From NCBI GenBank assembly GCA_007571315.1, contig RKRP01000133.1:1-51414 (forward strand): 51,414 nucleotides of DNA. The letters are read 5' to 3'. A model generated the notes under the pieces. It worked only from the letters and a program-made list of their open reading frames with translations. It did not search any database and had not been told where the DNA came from. Shown here one piece after another: positions 26,458 through 33,728 of the stretch; positions within the stretch are counted from its first letter, which is position 1, and the number at the start of each line of letters is the position of its first letter. The position numbers and the translations under genes are program-made. Source of the stretch: Gammaproteobacteria bacterium (GTDB lineage: Bacteria; Pseudomonadota; Gammaproteobacteria; Steroidobacterales; Foliamicaceae).

Positions 26458-27933
26458 TTACAAGGCAAGTTCCGGCTGTCGTGTTTTCAGGCGCTTCGGT
26501 TCGATGGTTCCGTAGCGCTCTTCTGCCAGCAATCCGATATCCAGGCTGGCCAGCAGACTAGCGGTTATTGGCCTCTTGGCATCCCAGAAAATAAATGACC
26601 GGAAGAATCCTCTGGCTGTTTCAGAGTTCAGCAAATCCTTCAGGTATTCTGCTTCGCCTTCATTCTCGCAAGGCAGAAAATAGCAAGTGTCGTCAAGCAC
26701 TACCGGCCTGCCATTCACGGGAGCTACCGTCCGAAATTCGAGATGCTTGTAGAACCCCGAAATGGCGACCTTCCACGGAGCGAAACTGTAATTTCCCACT
26801 CCGAAGACGGAATAGCGGGGCCGATTGCGGTAAATCGCGCTTGATCGAGCGTCGAGCGCATCGGAATGGGACTCAAGGTAGCGCCAGGTAAGAGGCGCTT
26901 TGCGGGCGATTCGCGCGGTGTCTTCGCCTATGGCGGTTTGCGTTACGAGCATATAGCGGGACGGCGCGCTGCCTTTCGAGAGATCGGAACTCTTAAGCAT
27001 CGGGAATAGAAATGTTTCCTCCAGCTTGACGGTTTCGCCGAGTCCGTTTCTGTACAAGCCAGGCTTGGCCGCCGGGCGCAACTCCATGACGCGCGAACAA
27101 TCGTGTTTGATCCCGGAACGCCATTTGAGTGGGGACGTTCCGCACAGGCGCTCATAGGCGCCTAGCGAATCCACATCGGCGACCAAACGGTCGTTGCGCA
27201 AGCCAAATGTCGTGTCCGGTTGAGATGACTTGAGCGTGGCAAAGGCATCGCACTCCCGGGAATGAGCGCCCGGTTTCAGGACGGTAACCAGCAGGCAGGC
27301 ATCTGCCGAAGCGCCGAAGTGGTCCAATGCGCTGATGCCATAGGCTGAGGATTTCTCGACCTGGAGATTGTTCTTCCAAGCATGACGCAACACTTTTCTG
27401 GCCACGGTTGTCTTGCATAGCATCGCCAACACTGCGGCGCGGCCCGAAAGCCATTCCAAAAGGCGAGTCAGCATCCATTCCGAAATGTCGAAGTTGCTCT
27501 TTCCGGTAATCGCATCAAGACCGTTGAAACGCTGGAAATTCGATTTGGATGGCAGATTTGAGCCGTTGAAGGAGCCCAATGCGGAATTGGTCACCCAAGG
27601 CGGATTGCCTATTGCCAGTATGGGTTCGCTAAGCTCTTTCAATGTCTTCGGCCAATTCTCCGCAAAGAAGTTTGCTTGGCGGACTTTCGCCCGCTTTGCC
27701 TGACTTCGGGCGGCTTCGACATGCTTGGGGTTAATGTCGAATCCAAGGAACAAATCGCAGTTGGGAAAGGCGGCTTCCGATGCTTGGAGGAAGGCACCGG
27801 TGCCGCATGTGGGTTCGACGACCGCGGCGGGCGATATTTTCAGCCGAACAAGAAGATCGCATACTTGGCTGGCAAGTATCGCTGGCGTCTGAAAATCGCC
27901 AAGTTCCGTCTTTTCTCTGGTCTTTATGCCCAT
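26458..27933 (-). CDS. N6-adenine DNA methyltransferase, gamma class (possibly NspV-like)
   Basis: GDFQTP, EPTCGTG, GNPPW and WRSGIKHDC; follows the REase gene by 4 bp. Confidence 0.85.
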   Translation of the reverse strand: MGIKTREKTELGDFQTPAILASQVCDLLVRLKISPAAVVEPTCGTGAFLQASEAAFPNCDLFLGFDINPKHVEAARSQAKRAKVRQANFFAENWPKTLKELSEPILAIGNPPWVTNSALGSFNGSNLPSKSNFQRFNGLDAITGKSNFDISEWMLTRLLEWLSGRAAVLAMLCKTTVARKVLRHAWKNNLQVEKSSAYGISALDHFGASADACLLVTVLKPGAHSRECDAFATLKSSQPDTTFGLRNDRLVADVDSLGAYERLCGTSPLKWRSGIKHDCSRVMELRPAAKPGLYRNGLGETVKLEETFLFPMLKSSDLSKGSAPSRYMLVTQTAIGEDTARIARKAPLTWRYLESHSDALDARSSAIYRNRPRYSVFGVGNYSFAPWKVAISGFYKHLEFRTVAPVNGRPVVLDDTCYFLPCENEGEAEYLKDLLNSETARGFFRSFIFWDAKRPITASLLASLDIGLLAEERYGTIEPKRLKTRQPELAL

Positions 27934-27937
27934 CCAA

Positions 27938-28591
27938 TCAAGCAATCCTTTGGATACCTCCAACCTTACCCGCCTCTTCGATTGCCCGCTTGTATTGCAG
28001 GCGCCATTGAAGTGCATTGGAAATCGTCAAATACCCTATTTGGGGAGGATTTCGCAGAAGTTCTTCAGCCAGTTCGAGCGCTTCCGTCTCATCGATCGGC
28101 AAGTTGCGGTCGTTCATGAAAGCCATGAGATCTTCGGCGTTGCCATCCCGTGAAATGATTTCTCGAATTCCTTGAGTGGTTTGGTAGTCTGCGGTTCGCG
28201 CCTCCTCAACATAAATGACATGAAGAATGTCCAGTCTCGCGGTTTGAAGTTCTTTGTTATCTGATTTTGAGTAAACAAATACAAGCAGTGAATACCCGAG
28301 TCCGCATACTTTCTGACGCGCGGACCTGAAGGGTGATGACGATTGCGGCTGCTTGATGCTTGTTACCTTCATGTCCACATTTAGATCCGGAAAATCGATC
28401 CCTTTCGCTGAACTGCCAATTTCGCACACGTACTTTTCATTGAGAAGGCGTTTGAATTTGTGCTCCAGATAGGTGCCCACGGCCTTGCCATCAGTAACGC
28501 CATAAAGATTCGGTTCGTCGTGGACGGATTCCGAGGTTGAAAATTTCGTCGCCTCGGATAAGAGAAATGTGATATTGAGCCTCGGTTTCAT
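27938..28591 (-). CDS. Putative type II restriction endonuclease (possibly NspV-like)
   Basis: GVTDGKAVGTYLEHKF, IDFPDLNVDMKVTS (PD...DxK) and LQWRLQY; upstream of the MTase. Confidence 0.7.
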   Translation of the reverse strand: MKPRLNITFLLSEATKFSTSESVHDEPNLYGVTDGKAVGTYLEHKFKRLLNEKYVCEIGSSAKGIDFPDLNVDMKVTSIKQPQSSSPFRSARQKVCGLGYSLLVFVYSKSDNKELQTARLDILHVIYVEEARTADYQTTQGIREIISRDGNAEDLMAFMNDRNLPIDETEALELAEELLRNPPQIGYLTISNALQWRLQYKRAIEEAGKVGGIQRIA

Positions 28592-28811
28592 ATTGTTGTA
28601 GATTTCACCCCAAAGTTGCGACTGCTTTCAAGTGAAAGCATTAATACTGCCCATGCCCGCTCTTGAATCGCCCTCACTACACGGCGTAATCTGAAACTGG
28701 ACACTTCTATTTGTCCGCAACATGCAGGGGCACACGCATTACCGGACAGCTATTTTTGCGTCATAATGTTCGGCTGGGCATCTTAATGAATTCTGGAAAC
28801 CGGGAGGCAGG

Positions 28812-30102
28812 ATGAACTGGAGAGTGGCGGCGGCGCTGGCAGCAGCTTCCGCGTGGCTCGGGGTTGCCGGGTGTGCGAAGACGCAGGTTTCCTGCGATGA
28901 CTGGAACACGACAGCATTTTTCGCGGGTGCGTCCATTGCCGAAGTGTCACGCTGCTCAGCAGCCGACGCCGACCAGAATGCGCGGGATGAATACGGACGG
29001 ACACTCCTGCACTGGGCGGCACTCCTTCACCAGGACCCCGCGGTCATTGTGGCTCTGGTTGACGCGGGCGCTGATCCGAACGGGCGGGATGAACGCGGAT
29101 GGACCCCTCTGCACTCGGCAGTGGCTGATAACGATATCCTCGCGGTCATTGCGGCACTGATGAGCAAGGCCAGGGCCGATTTGAACACGCGGGACGAAGA
29201 GGGCGTAGCCCTCCCGCGCGCGGCTGCGGCCCATAGCGGGATGACCGACTTCATTGCGGCACTGAGCAAGGCCAGGGCCGATTTGAACACGCAGGATGAC
29301 AAGGGAGCGATACCCCTGCGCGCGGCGGCTAATGGCTACGGGGACGGCGCGAAAGTGTATTCCACTCGCGATACCCCTGCGCGCGGCGGCTAATGACCAG
29401 CTTCCCGCGGTCATCGAGGCGCTGATTGATGCGGGCGCTGATCCGAACGTGCGGGAGCGATCTGGAATTACCCCTCTGGCCATTGCTTTATTGAGTAAAC
29501 GGGAACCTGCGGTCATCGAGGCGCTGACCAACGCTGGTGCTGATCCGAACGCGAGGGATAAAAGCGGACTCGGATGGACCCCTCTGCACTATGCGGTCTT
29601 CCTTAATGAGGATGCCTTGGTTACCGCGGCACTAATCGACTCTGGCGCTGATCCGAACGCGCGAAGTAGATCTGGAACTACCCCTCTGCACCTGGCGGCG
29701 CTCCTGGCGGAGGATCCCCTGGTAGTGGCGACGCTAATCGATGCGGGCGCTGATCCGAACGCGCAAGCCAAAGCAGGGTTGACTCCCCTGCACTGGGCGG
29801 CGGGTTTTATTGGGTACCCCGCGGTTATCGCGGCGCTGGTTGACTCCGGCGCCGACCCGAGTGCGCGGGATGATGACGGATGGACGCCCTTGCACTGGGC
29901 GGCGGGTTATATTGAGCACCCTGCGGTCATCGCGGCGCTGGTTGATGCTGGCGCTGATCCGAACGCGCTGTCTGACGACGGATTGACTCCCCTGCACGTG
30001 GCTACTGCCAATGGCGAGGCGAGGCGCGTAATGGCAGCGTTAATGTTCGTCGGCGCTGATATGGAAGCACGGCCCCCGATGGCCCCACTCCTTGAGAATT
30101 AA
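28812..30102 (+). pseudogene. Ankyrin-repeat lipoprotein frameshifted by a 61-bp insertion
   Basis: Lipobox VAGC and many G-x-TPLH...AGADPNA repeats split over two frames; removing 29335-29395 restores one 409-aa ORF. Confidence 0.85.
29307..29395 (+). CRISPR. Single repeat-spacer-repeat unit (candidate off-target neo-CRISPR integration)
   Basis: Exact 28-bp direct repeat GCGATACCCCTGCGCGCGGCGGCTAATG at 29307 and 29368 around a unique 33-bp insert; no cas genes in the window. Confidence 0.5.
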
Positions 30103-30250
30103 TTCGGATAATGCCGCTTTTCACGGAGCCGGATGCGTTCTGCCATCTCAACGCTGCGCGCTTCGAATATCGTGCCGCCATCTTGCATTTCGCAGGGGCG
30201 GTGATTCAGACTTGCGGGCACAATTGCCGCAAGGCTTGGGAGATATAGAC

Positions 30251-31426
30251 ATGATCCGCAGTTTTATTTCATCTGCTTGCCGGAGCGCTCTCGGCGCGCT
30301 GCCGATACTGATTCTGGCGGGATTCGCCGTCTTTCTGGGCGCGCCGAACACGGAAGCGCAGCCGGCTGGCGGGCAGCGGTCGGACCCGCCTGTGCCGGAT
30401 GAAATCGTGTGGCGCAACGACGAGATGCTGCCGTACTACGAAATACCGAACATCCCTGTTTCCGCCGAGGCCTACTTTGCTCCGGACAGCTATCACATGA
30501 TTGCCCAGACCCGCGACAAGGATGCCGTCCAAGGCGAGAACGGCAGGCACGGCAATCTCACCTACACCTACACCATTGAAGGCACCGAGCTGACCCGCAT
30601 CAACGACAAGGGCCAGGATGCCTGCTCGTATTTCTTTCCCGACCAGAAGCGCGTTATTTTCACTTCCACCCGGGACAACCTGCATCTGCCGGTGGGGAAC
30701 TGGTCGGACGAGGACGAGTATCCCATGGGCGCCGAGCTCTATATCGCCAATATCGATGGCAGCGACCGTCGGCGGCTTACCCACAACGAGCACTACGAGG
30801 CTGAAGTGGTCGTGTCGCCCACCGGCGAATGGATCGCTTTTGGACGCAACATCGACGGACGGCAGGACTTGTGGCGCATACGCCCCGACGGCACCGACGA
30901 ACAGCGTATAACAGACACCGGCGATTGGCAGGAAGGCTCTCCATATTTCATGCCCGACGGAGAGAATCTGCTGTTCCGCTCCTGGCGCGACTCGGAGTTC
31001 AAGAAGATCAGGCCCACGCCCATGACGGTGATGACAATCAACATCGACGGCTCCAACTGGCGCCGCTACACCTTTGACAACGATATGAACTGGGCGCCCA
31101 ATCCGGCCCCCAACGGACGGCACTACGTGTTTGTGCGCATTTCCGAAATGACCGGCCGGCTCGGCAACTGGGACCTGTACCTCGGCGATCTTGCAGGCGG
31201 CGAGCCTGTTCGCCTTACCACCTTCGAGGGTTTTGACGGCCTTCCGGGCATGGCGCCCAACGGCAAACTGCTGGCCTGGGCGCGAGCCAAGGGCGGGAGC
31301 TTCATGGCCGGCATACGCACGCACATCATGGACGTGTCTTCGCTGAACCTCGGCCCCGAGCACTATGAACCGCTGAATCCCGAATGGGGCGAAGCCATGT
31401 TCGACGACCCGCCAGCGCCGCAGTAA
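30251..31426 (+). CDS. TolB-like/PD40 beta-propeller periplasmic protein
   Basis: Signal peptide and repeated SPxG/PDG...RLT propeller motifs. Confidence 0.8.
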   Translation: MIRSFISSACRSALGALPILILAGFAVFLGAPNTEAQPAGGQRSDPPVPDEIVWRNDEMLPYYEIPNIPVSAEAYFAPDSYHMIAQTRDKDAVQGENGRHGNLTYTYTIEGTELTRINDKGQDACSYFFPDQKRVIFTSTRDNLHLPVGNWSDEDEYPMGAELYIANIDGSDRRRLTHNEHYEAEVVVSPTGEWIAFGRNIDGRQDLWRIRPDGTDEQRITDTGDWQEGSPYFMPDGENLLFRSWRDSEFKKIRPTPMTVMTINIDGSNWRRYTFDNDMNWAPNPAPNGRHYVFVRISEMTGRLGNWDLYLGDLAGGEPVRLTTFEGFDGLPGMAPNGKLLAWARAKGGSFMAGIRTHIMDVSSLNLGPEHYEPLNPEWGEAMFDDPPAPQ

Positions 31427-31468: not shown

Positions 31469-31570
31469 CCCTCCCTTCCGGGAGTGTTGGAGTGCGCGCC
31501 AATAGCTTGGCGCGCACGAATGGCGGAACCAAGCTCCATGGATGTATTCATGCGTCTCCCGCAAGGAGGG
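31469..31570. repeat. Palindromic element (copy 2) with an extra inserted hairpin
   Basis: CCCTCCCTTCCGGGAG arm, inner GTGCGCGCCAA-TAGC-TTGGCGCGCAC hairpin and AAGCTCCATGGATGTATTCATGCGT core. Confidence 0.75.
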
Positions 31571-31621
31571 AGCAAACCGAAAGGCGGGAAAGCGCAACCT
31601 AGTGAAATATCTGCTGCCTGA

Positions 31622-31726
31622 GCCTATCTTTGTCCCTCCCTTCCGGGAGTGTTGGAGCCAGGACGGCGGAACCAAGCTCCATGGATGGATTTATGCGTCT
31701 CCCGGAAGGGAGGGACAAAGATAGGC
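31622..31726. repeat. Palindromic element (copy 3)
   Basis: Perfect 28-bp inverted arms around a 49-nt core ending AAGCTCCATGGATGGATTTATGCGT. Confidence 0.85.
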
Positions 31727-31822
31727 GGAATCAACGCGCCTTTAAGGTTTTTAAGAAAACCGGTACGGCATGCGCGCTGATGCGCTCGTATATCATCCCG
31801 GCGGAGACAAGGGGGCGCCGCC

Positions 31823-33538: not shown

Positions 33539-33545
33539 CCGCATA

Positions 33546-33685
33546 TTGCCTTTGGGCGGGCATCTTTTCCGTCCCCTCCTCTCGGCGGGGCGTCAACGGC
33601 AGGATAGCCGTTGCCGAGCCCCAGGGATGGGTTCATGCGTCCCCGCCGAGAGGAGGGGACGGAAAAGATGCCCGCCCAAAGGCAA
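33546..33685. repeat. Palindromic element (copy 4)
   Basis: Perfect 45-bp inverted arms around CGTCAACGGCAGGATAGCCGTTGCCGAGCCCCAGGGATGGGTTCATGCGT; between convergent genes. Confidence 0.9.
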
Positions 33686-33728
33686 CATTCAGGGCAGCCG
33701 CCGGCATCCTGATCGCAATCGCTAGCGA

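Follow-up and report, generated by a model that had tools for sequence, protein, structure and literature searches.

A polymorphic 61-bp insertion with the dimensions of a type I-E CRISPR spacer integration in an ankyrin-repeat gene of a sponge symbiont

In the window, a stretch of 51,414 nucleotides from a gammaproteobacterium associated with sponges (GenBank assembly GCA_007571315.1, contig RKRP01000133.1), an ankyrin-repeat gene carries 61 extra bases, which consist of a duplicated 28-bp piece of its own coding sequence and a 33-nt insert that is unique in the genome. It is probable that these bases were left by off-target integration at the ankyrin site by a type I-E Cas1-Cas2, the enzyme being unassembled, strain-variable or since lost. 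What is observed is the anatomy of the insertion, its polymorphism, the frameshift it causes, and the resemblance of its site to an I-E leader-repeat junction; the enzyme itself, being absent from the assembly, we infer. Such an integration had been proposed in a first-pass annotation of this DNA. The geometry, the junction likeness, and the existence of both alleles speak for the proposal, and the lack of a type I-E system in the assembly and of a protospacer for the insert speaks against it.

The duplicated sequence, GCGATACCCCTGCGCGCGGCGGCTAATG, is present as two exact direct copies, whose positions are given in Table 1 with those of the other features. Since the outer neighbouring bases are unlike on both sides of the copies, the length of the duplication is exactly 28 bp. 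Between the copies lies the insert, the first base of which is G. The sequence is thus as the first-pass annotation had described it, and our hand count agrees with its figure of 15/28 matches to the E. coli repeat as quoted there. The insert is single-copy in the 2.2-Mb genome, where the next-nearest site has exactly 10 mismatches and is the sole other site within 10 mismatches. Derivation of the 33-mer from ankyrin sequence had been named as a refutation of the proposal; nothing resembling it was found close to the site or in the rest of the genome. A genome-wide scan for pairs of 28-nt sequences with at least 23/28 matches at a spacing of 60-62 bp returned two places only: the present site, with 28/28, and a hairpin-like pair with 25/28 on a different contig. 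Therefore, the 28-bp pair is far above chance, and the search for further 28 + 33 duplications in the genome, which had been recommended, ended with this exact pair only.

Table 1. Positions of the insertion and of the ankyrin-repeat frames in the window, and of three other duplication-plus-insert scars in the same genome.
Feature	Position	Strand	Remarks
Leader-like flank, 28 bp 5' of the duplicated target	29279..29306	+	Within ankyrin CDS; 16/28 vs G016 I-E leader end, in register; without ATCA core
Target-site duplication, copy 1; 'new repeat', leader-proximal, on the CRISPR reading	29307..29334	+	Exact 28-bp copy; 16/28 vs G013/G016 I-E repeat in register; GCGG at positions 16-19
Spacer-like insert, 33 nt	29335..29367	+	G first; genome-unique; length and first base equal the modal G013/G016 spacer
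Target-site duplication, copy 2; original target position	29368..29395	+	Exact 28-bp copy; uninterrupted allele joins 29306 to 29368 (X2 contig)
Truncated N-terminal ankyrin-repeat ORF, 193 aa	28812..29393	+	ORF list; Pfam Ank_2, Ank_4, Ank
Downstream ankyrin-repeat frame, about 7 repeats	29368..30102	+	ORF list; Pfam Ank_2 E = 1e-66; 102-bp repeat period
Scar C76	C76:7054		32 bp + 34 nt
Scar C135	C135:10909		37 bp + 35 nt
Scar C169	C169:35893		37 bp + 16 nt

Ankyrin-repeat coding sequence with a period of 102 bp is present on both flanks of the insertion. Copy 1 is codon-aligned in the upstream ORF and copy 2 in the downstream frame; therefore, the two halves fall into one frame when the 61 bp are removed. 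The upstream ORF stays in frame through copy 1, reads the insert as junk, and ends at a stop within copy 2 that is exposed by the frameshift. In the downstream frame, copy 2 encodes the same residues as copy 1 and is followed by about seven further repeats, the start codon having been severed by the insertion. The 61 extra bases thus split one ankyrin-repeat gene, of which the predicted product is a truncated protein. Restoration of the frame by deletion of the 61 bp had already been pointed out, and this very joint is seen in a natural contig, as described below. Comparison with sister strains found an orthologous ankyrin gene at the DNA level in 0/40 relatives, and at the protein level, with the downstream half as the query for the intact allele, nothing above about 55% identity was obtained among 8,000 candidates scored, so that these include no protein of an intact allele. 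Ankyrin-repeat genes are described in one account as enriched in sponge symbionts, where they are thought to aid persistence in the host (PMC8163846).

Four DNA runs of sponge metagenomes (X1-X4), all from one study, contain this stretch, and their independently built contigs were aligned on positions 28600-30300. Contigs from X1 (685 nt) and X3 (476 nt) span copy 1, the insert, and copy 2 with zero differences. The X2 contig (379 nt, depth 5.2) joins the base before copy 1 directly to the first base of copy 2, the 61 bases being absent. The X4 contig begins at 29368, and its 13 loose letters are the bases which precede copy 1, i.e. the same joint as in X2. The allele evidence consists of contigs rather than reads, at a depth of 3-5 and from a single study, and the MAG itself may have been built from X1. 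With two runs per allele, the insertion is a real natural polymorphism and no artefact of the MAG; an uninterrupted allele, for which the first-pass annotation had advised looking, is present in X2 and X4. The uninterrupted, in-frame allele is likely to be the ancestor; alternatively, it may have re-arisen by deletion between the 28-bp copies. Since the alleles are otherwise identical in the contigs, the insertion event looks recent.

Cas1-Cas2 chooses its target by the leader-repeat junction. A site used off target may be compared with such junctions without any freedom of alignment in this case, since the place of the junction is set by the duplication, and the orientation by the duplication together with the leading G. 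The models were composed of the last 28 nt of the leader and the 28-nt repeat of each congener I-E array, and they were scored along both strands of the whole genome, position by position. With the junction of G016, the site matches at 32/56, and only 4 of 4,408,030 positions are as high. It matches the junction of array 1 of G013 at 29/56 (128 positions as high) and that of G004 at 25/56 (4,432 positions as high). The repeat part alone gives 16/28 (6,260 positions as high), and the leader part of G016 alone, in register, also 16/28 (786 of 4,419,454 positions as high). When eight junction models, four events, and two orientations were combined in a matrix of 64 tests, only the window event in its G-first orientation stood out, the best other cell having 84,133 of about 4.4 million positions as high. 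Comparison with five junctions of types I-C and I-G gave the site an unremarkable 9-22/56 in either orientation, and the opposite orientation is likewise unremarkable for I-E. Within the ankyrin gene itself, the target repeat is the top scorer, ten other repeat-phase positions having given 12-29/56.

The likeness to G016 was noticed by eye before the formal test, and G016 is the best of the four I-E models tested; therefore, a more neutral junction profile was built. A search of genome contigs with the Cas1e of G013 gave 80 loci, from which 66 usable and 52 non-redundant junctions were obtained. With the profile of these 52 junctions, the site ranks 216th of 4,408,030 positions for the leader end of 28 nt plus the 28-nt repeat, and 797th when 40 nt of leader are taken. 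Scored separately, the repeat comes 6,097th and the leader no higher than 37,793rd; the tetranucleotide ATCA, which the site lacks, is the best-conserved leader core of the I-E family. Stated conservatively, the insertion site is among the 0.005% of genome positions that are most like an I-E junction.

The length of the duplication may also be read from a motif within it. In the account of Goren 2016 (PMC5039180), the second inverted repeat of the E. coli type I-E system contains a GCGGG-type motif, and the distal cut is made 8 nt past the end of this motif; another ruler spans 16 nt, counted from a CCCCGCG-type motif, and mutations of the inverted repeats cut adaptation about 100-fold. Positions 16-20 of the duplicated 28-mer are GCGGC, which gives 4/5 bases of the motif of the second inverted repeat in register and leaves 8 nt to the distal cut. 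A length of 28 bp is what a GCGGG-type ruler would predict for a duplication at this site. The motif of the first inverted repeat is partial, with 4/7 bases in register by hand count, and since inverted-repeat mutations lower adaptation so strongly, the site would be a poor substrate.

The unit at the site does not resemble a working array. The predicted fold of the duplicated sequence has an energy of -4.3 kcal/mol, with 190/200 shuffles at least as good, versus -13.9 kcal/mol for a true I-E repeat. Rfam returned no CRISPR repeat family for the window, and none for a true I-E array used as a control either. As the duplicated sequence lacks the repeat hairpin, the reading as an array seed is unsupported. 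Most likely, the unit is dead as an array seed, with neither a hairpin nor genes for processing or effectors. The suggestion that CRISPR adaptation had here acted 'as a mutagen or array seed' is therefore retained in its first half, given the frameshifted gene, and given up in its second.

Type I-E systems occur in the genus. A Cas1e above the family cut-off is present in 3/21 congeners (G016, G013, and G004), and G013 has a full operon of cas3, cse1, cse2, cas7, cas5, cas6e, cas1e, and cas2e. The I-E arrays of all three are built from 61-bp units, in which the repeat has 28 nt, or 29 nt if the following G is included. By the 28-nt convention, the spacers of G013 and G016 have a length of 33 nt in 36/40 cases and begin with G in 38/40; therefore, the 28 + 33 unit in the window, with its leading G, is of the modal kind in these arrays. 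The spacers of G004 have 33 nt in 70/70 cases, but G comes first in only 10/70. By comparison, repeats of 33 nt and units of 66-68 bp are found in the I-C arrays of congeners, and repeats of 36 nt and units of 72-74 bp in their I-G arrays. Cas1e proteins with 80-95% identity are found in MAGs titled Gammaproteobacteria, Alphaproteobacteria, Vicinamibacterales, Bryobacterales, Candidatus Entotheonella, Binatia, and others. Since these titles refer to different phyla, frequent lateral transfer of this I-E family may be assumed, and the protein sequences point to a Cas1e family that moves between lineages.

The assembly from which the window comes (as contig C119) is a MAG of 2.2 Mb in 204 contigs, with 63.5% G+C and an estimated completeness of 91%. 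It contains two Cas1 genes only, one of type I-C and one fused as Cas4g/Cas1g. The type I-C operon on contig C41 consists of cas3, cas5, cas8c, cas7, cas4, cas1, and cas2, with a single 33-nt repeat at the contig end. The Cas4g/Cas1g fusion lies with a Cas2 on contig C58, flanked by yggS and by the gene of a TonB-dependent receptor; no array accompanies it, and a search of the assembly for type I-G effector genes found none. No Cas1e was found in the 91%-complete assembly. Searches for Cas2e and Cas6e in the assembly were also without a match, as they were with their E. coli controls. Translated BLAST of all ORFs of the I-E loci from the three congeners against the assembly gave no cas match, and no I-E Cascade or Cas3. 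Nothing closer to the I-E repeat than 21/28 is present in it. The flanks of the 15.2-kb I-E island of G013 are 80-82% identical to stretches of contig C114 that are only 42 bp apart, which is the empty site. The closest relative, G009, has no Cas1e match. Thus, a type I-E adaptation module, on which the first-pass annotation had made its proposal depend, is found in the genus, in 3/21 congeners, and is not found in this assembly, which has no I-E gene or array and an empty syntenic site. As the event looks recent and the integrase is missing, the I-E system may be strain-variable, unbinned or unassembled, or very recently lost, which the apparent lateral mobility of this Cas1e family makes easier to accept.

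An origin of the contig from another, I-E-bearing organism was also considered and is ruled out by its identity pattern. At the DNA level, C119 shares 85-90% identity with G009 and 79-82% with the I-E carriers G013 and G016, as does C114, and it thus belongs with the remainder of the MAG.

The source of the 33-nt insert was sought in several collections. The exact 33-mer had 0 matches in the viral contigs, metagenome contigs, and genome contigs of three public collections, and in blastn searches of phages and plasmids, the matches were 17-24 nt long and no more than chance. Within 3 mismatches, no site is present in 300 genomes of the order, and in the 118 loci collected, the best match is 22/33. 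A protospacer with an adjoining AAG-type PAM, which it had been suggested to look for, was thus not obtained from the public, phage, plasmid, and order-level genome data: no source was found and hence no PAM.

The chief competing explanation, which we regard as unlikely, is a scar unrelated to CRISPR, left by template switching or by staggered-break repair with filler DNA, in which case the I-E dimensions would be coincidental. A process of this kind is suggested by three further exact duplication-plus-insert scars in the genome (C76, C135, and C169 in Table 1), none of which is like any CRISPR junction, and it needs no I-E enzyme, which the assembly does not have. The three came from a genome-wide list of 30 pairs of identical direct repeats, 18 bp or longer, that enclose an insert; most of these pairs lie in tandem or palindromic repeat elements. 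The insert of C76 recurs without a difference in coding sequence of contig C202, and each joint shares one base. Two of these scars have units of 66 bp and 72 bp, the same lengths as in congener arrays of types I-C and I-G, and a CRISPR origin was considered for all three; it was rejected, as each duplication misses the repeat lengths of 33 and 36 nt by 1 base and the sites are unlike I-C and I-G junctions. The scars may stem from the resident integrases, from another process, or from the assembler. They raise the odds of a generic scar-making process, which would not, however, explain the I-E-specific features of the window. Such a process does not jointly predict a 28-bp duplication, a 33-nt insert, a first G, and a site that ranks between 4 and 216 of 4.4 million positions. 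In addition, the insert in the window has nothing similar nearby or elsewhere in the genome, and end joining is made less likely by a search for Ku genes that found none.

An integrase of the resident systems, either the type I-C Cas1-Cas2 or the orphan Cas4g/Cas1g-Cas2, might also have acted off target. Both modules are present and look intact, and any activity of Cas4g/Cas1g-Cas2, which is without an array or effectors, must be off target because it has no array of its own. Nevertheless, the repeats of 33 and 36 nt and units of 66-68 and 72-74 bp in their arrays, here and in congeners, differ from the 28 and 61 bp in the window, and the low scores of the site against the five I-C and I-G junctions (9-22/56, either orientation) make this origin very unlikely. 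Another CRISPR subtype with a 28-bp repeat, e.g. type I-F, would also fit the length of the duplication. The units of type I-F have 60 bp (28 + 32), versus the 61 bp found here; moreover, no Cas1 beyond those of I-C and Cas4g/Cas1g was found in the assembly, and the site resembles I-E junctions specifically, so that this subtype is an even more improbable source. An error of assembly or sequencing might be suspected in a MAG of 204 contigs, particularly as the independent contigs have a depth of only 3-5. It is hardly credible and largely refuted, since separately built contigs from X1 and X3 share the insertion and those from X2 and X4 carry the clean allele.

Off-target integration by a type I-E enzyme, the reading preferred here, can be potentially described as follows. 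A type I-E Cas1-Cas2 would have targeted a non-CRISPR site which mimics its own leader-repeat junction. The two strands would have been cut 28 bp apart inside the ankyrin repeat, and a 33-nt prespacer ligated, with its first G derived from the PAM. Repair of the gaps would then have duplicated the 28 bp, and the result would be a gene-breaking mutation rather than a functional mini-array. A wider scheme may be put forward as a speculation, and a rather unlikely one: mobile I-E modules would be hit-and-run mutagens that scar host-interaction genes of sponge symbionts in genomes where the island is lost or sporadic, the C76, C135, and C169 scars would be like damage by the resident I-C and orphan Cas4/Cas1-Cas2, and integrases would constitute a recurrent source of small insertions.

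Off-target integration has so far been studied mainly with overexpressed E. coli Cas1-Cas2, and the present case bears on the part it plays in nature, be it as a burden on CRISPR carriers or as a way in which new arrays arise. It offers a wild example in which both alleles segregate, a target preference that can be measured, and a visible cost in the form of a broken ankyrin-repeat gene. A scar may outlive the mobile CRISPR island that caused it; if so, such scars could record past carriage of CRISPR.

In the study conducted by Nivala, Shipman and Church (2018, Nat Microbiol), as described in the papers that cite it, overexpressed E. coli Cas1-Cas2 integrates spacers outside arrays and can spawn new arrays ('neo-CRISPR'); sites near IHF-like motifs are favoured, and circumstantial evidence is given for two other species. 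The insertion in the window is like these events in its spacer-sized insert, its repeat-length duplication, and its junction-like genomic site. Unlike the E. coli events so described, it is natural and polymorphic in the wild, and it interrupts a protein-coding gene in an uncultured symbiont of sponges, with no cognate I-E system assembled. It may overlap with the natural cases of that study.

With the arrays of G013, G016, and G004, the unit shares the 28-nt repeat, the 33-nt spacer, and the total of 61 bp, and with those of G013 and G016 also the leading G. It differs from them in that the 'repeat' of the window matches at 16/28 only and has no hairpin, a single spacer is present, and there is neither an AT-rich leader nor a cas gene. 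As in the ruler described by Goren 2016 (PMC5039180), the GCGG of the window is in register and the cut lies 8 nt beyond the end of the motif, the first inverted repeat being only partial. For the Cas1-Cas2 of Pyrococcus furiosus, off-target integration in vitro is reported with cuts on opposite strands one repeat length apart, in sequences outside CRISPR arrays that have bases in common with the borders and centre of the repeat (PMC6698737). That report, unlike the window, concerns another subtype, with a 30-bp repeat, and plasmid DNA in vitro. Off-target acquisition is listed as one of three proposed origins of orphan or isolated arrays (PMC13142298, citing Shmakov 2020); unlike these arrays, the window holds a single unit within a gene, which is probably unprocessable. 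Overall, the window case appears to be a natural instance of an already known off-target integration, from which it differs by its missing cognate system, its target in a coding gene, and its segregating alleles.

The genome that carries the window has CRISPR modules of its own. On contig C58, a Cas4g/Cas1g fusion and Cas2 form an orphan adaptation module, which has no array, and type I-G effector genes are absent from the entire assembly. The ortholog in the closest relative, G009 (87% identical), belongs to a complete type I-G locus, whose array counts eight or more repeats. The type I-C operon on C41 is complete; its array itself is unassembled, since only the first 33-nt repeat is present, at the contig end.

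Positions of CRISPR modules, scars, genes and repeat elements in the window and elsewhere in the same genome
Feature	Location	Locus	Strand	Description
Orphan adaptation module	C58:4759-6819	L004		Cas4g/Cas1g fusion and Cas2
Type I-C operon	C41:1-8804	L003		complete
Overlapping ORFs, 519 and 217 aa	window 26458-28591		minus	directly upstream of ankyrin gene
Dispersed element	window 28690-28722			about 33 bp; upstream of ankyrin gene
Palindromic REP- or MITE-like elements	window 31469-31740 and about 33540-33690			C-rich and G-rich arms
Hairpin-like pair	C86:1046-1133			28-nt copies, 25/28 identical, 60 bp apart
Duplication-plus-insert scar	C76:7054-7151, outside window			exact 32-bp direct repeat flanking 34-nt insert
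Duplication-plus-insert scar	C135:10909-11017	L005		exact 37-bp direct repeat flanking unique 35-nt insert
Duplication-plus-insert scar	C169:35893-35982	L006		exact 37-bp direct repeat flanking 16-nt G+C-rich insert

Among the 80 loci recovered with the Cas1e of one type I-E-bearing congener (L039-L118), the proteins of this family share 80-95% identity, and the record titles of the metagenome-assembled genomes that encode them name several phyla. Such identity across genomes titled in this way suggests that the whole type I-E system has spread laterally in recent times. Leader-repeat junctions could be read from these loci, 66 of them usable, and conserved leader motifs are common to them. 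In another congener, an ankyrin-repeat-like ORF (G016 locus L035, 8859-9170), encoded on the strand opposite to that of the type I-E array, continues directly into the oldest (trailer) repeat of this array. Judged by eye, this ORF may encode an ankyrin-repeat protein whose N-terminus is hydrophobic and signal-like; its contact with the array may be a coincidence or the result of an ancient rearrangement involving an ankyrin gene.

Of the two overlapping ORFs upstream of the ankyrin gene in the window, the longer has weak methyltransferase matches, below the Pfam cut-offs, and the shorter matches no known family; together they may constitute a restriction-modification pair. The DNA-level match to the closest relative starts only at about position 30182, and therefore the ORF pair and the ankyrin gene may both be confined to this lineage.

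Copies of the dispersed element that are 88-94% identical are found in several congeners as well as on another contig of the genome, often close to the end of a contig, and in all four sponge-metagenome runs contigs attach at this element and then diverge from the window sequence. The REP- or MITE-like elements have dozens of copies in three congeners (G009, G013 and G016) and are also found at many contig ends of the genome itself. By eye, the pair on C86 looks like paired terminator or REP hairpins rather than a spacer unit.

The scar on C169 shifts the reading frame of a small ORF, close to where that ORF starts. On C135 the 37-bp repeat extends across the stop codon that ends an ORF, which, read by eye, may be cytochrome-c-like, and the site bears no likeness to any junction compared. 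The target of the C76 scar is one arm of a palindrome, and its insert matches coding sequence at C202:1244-1279 exactly, over 36 nt when the one base shared at each end is included; comparison of this site with type I-C junctions showed no likeness. In length, the unit of the C76 scar (66 bp) is the same as the type I-C array unit found in the congeners, and that of the C135 scar (72 bp) is the same as their type I-G array unit (72-74 bp, with a 36-nt repeat).
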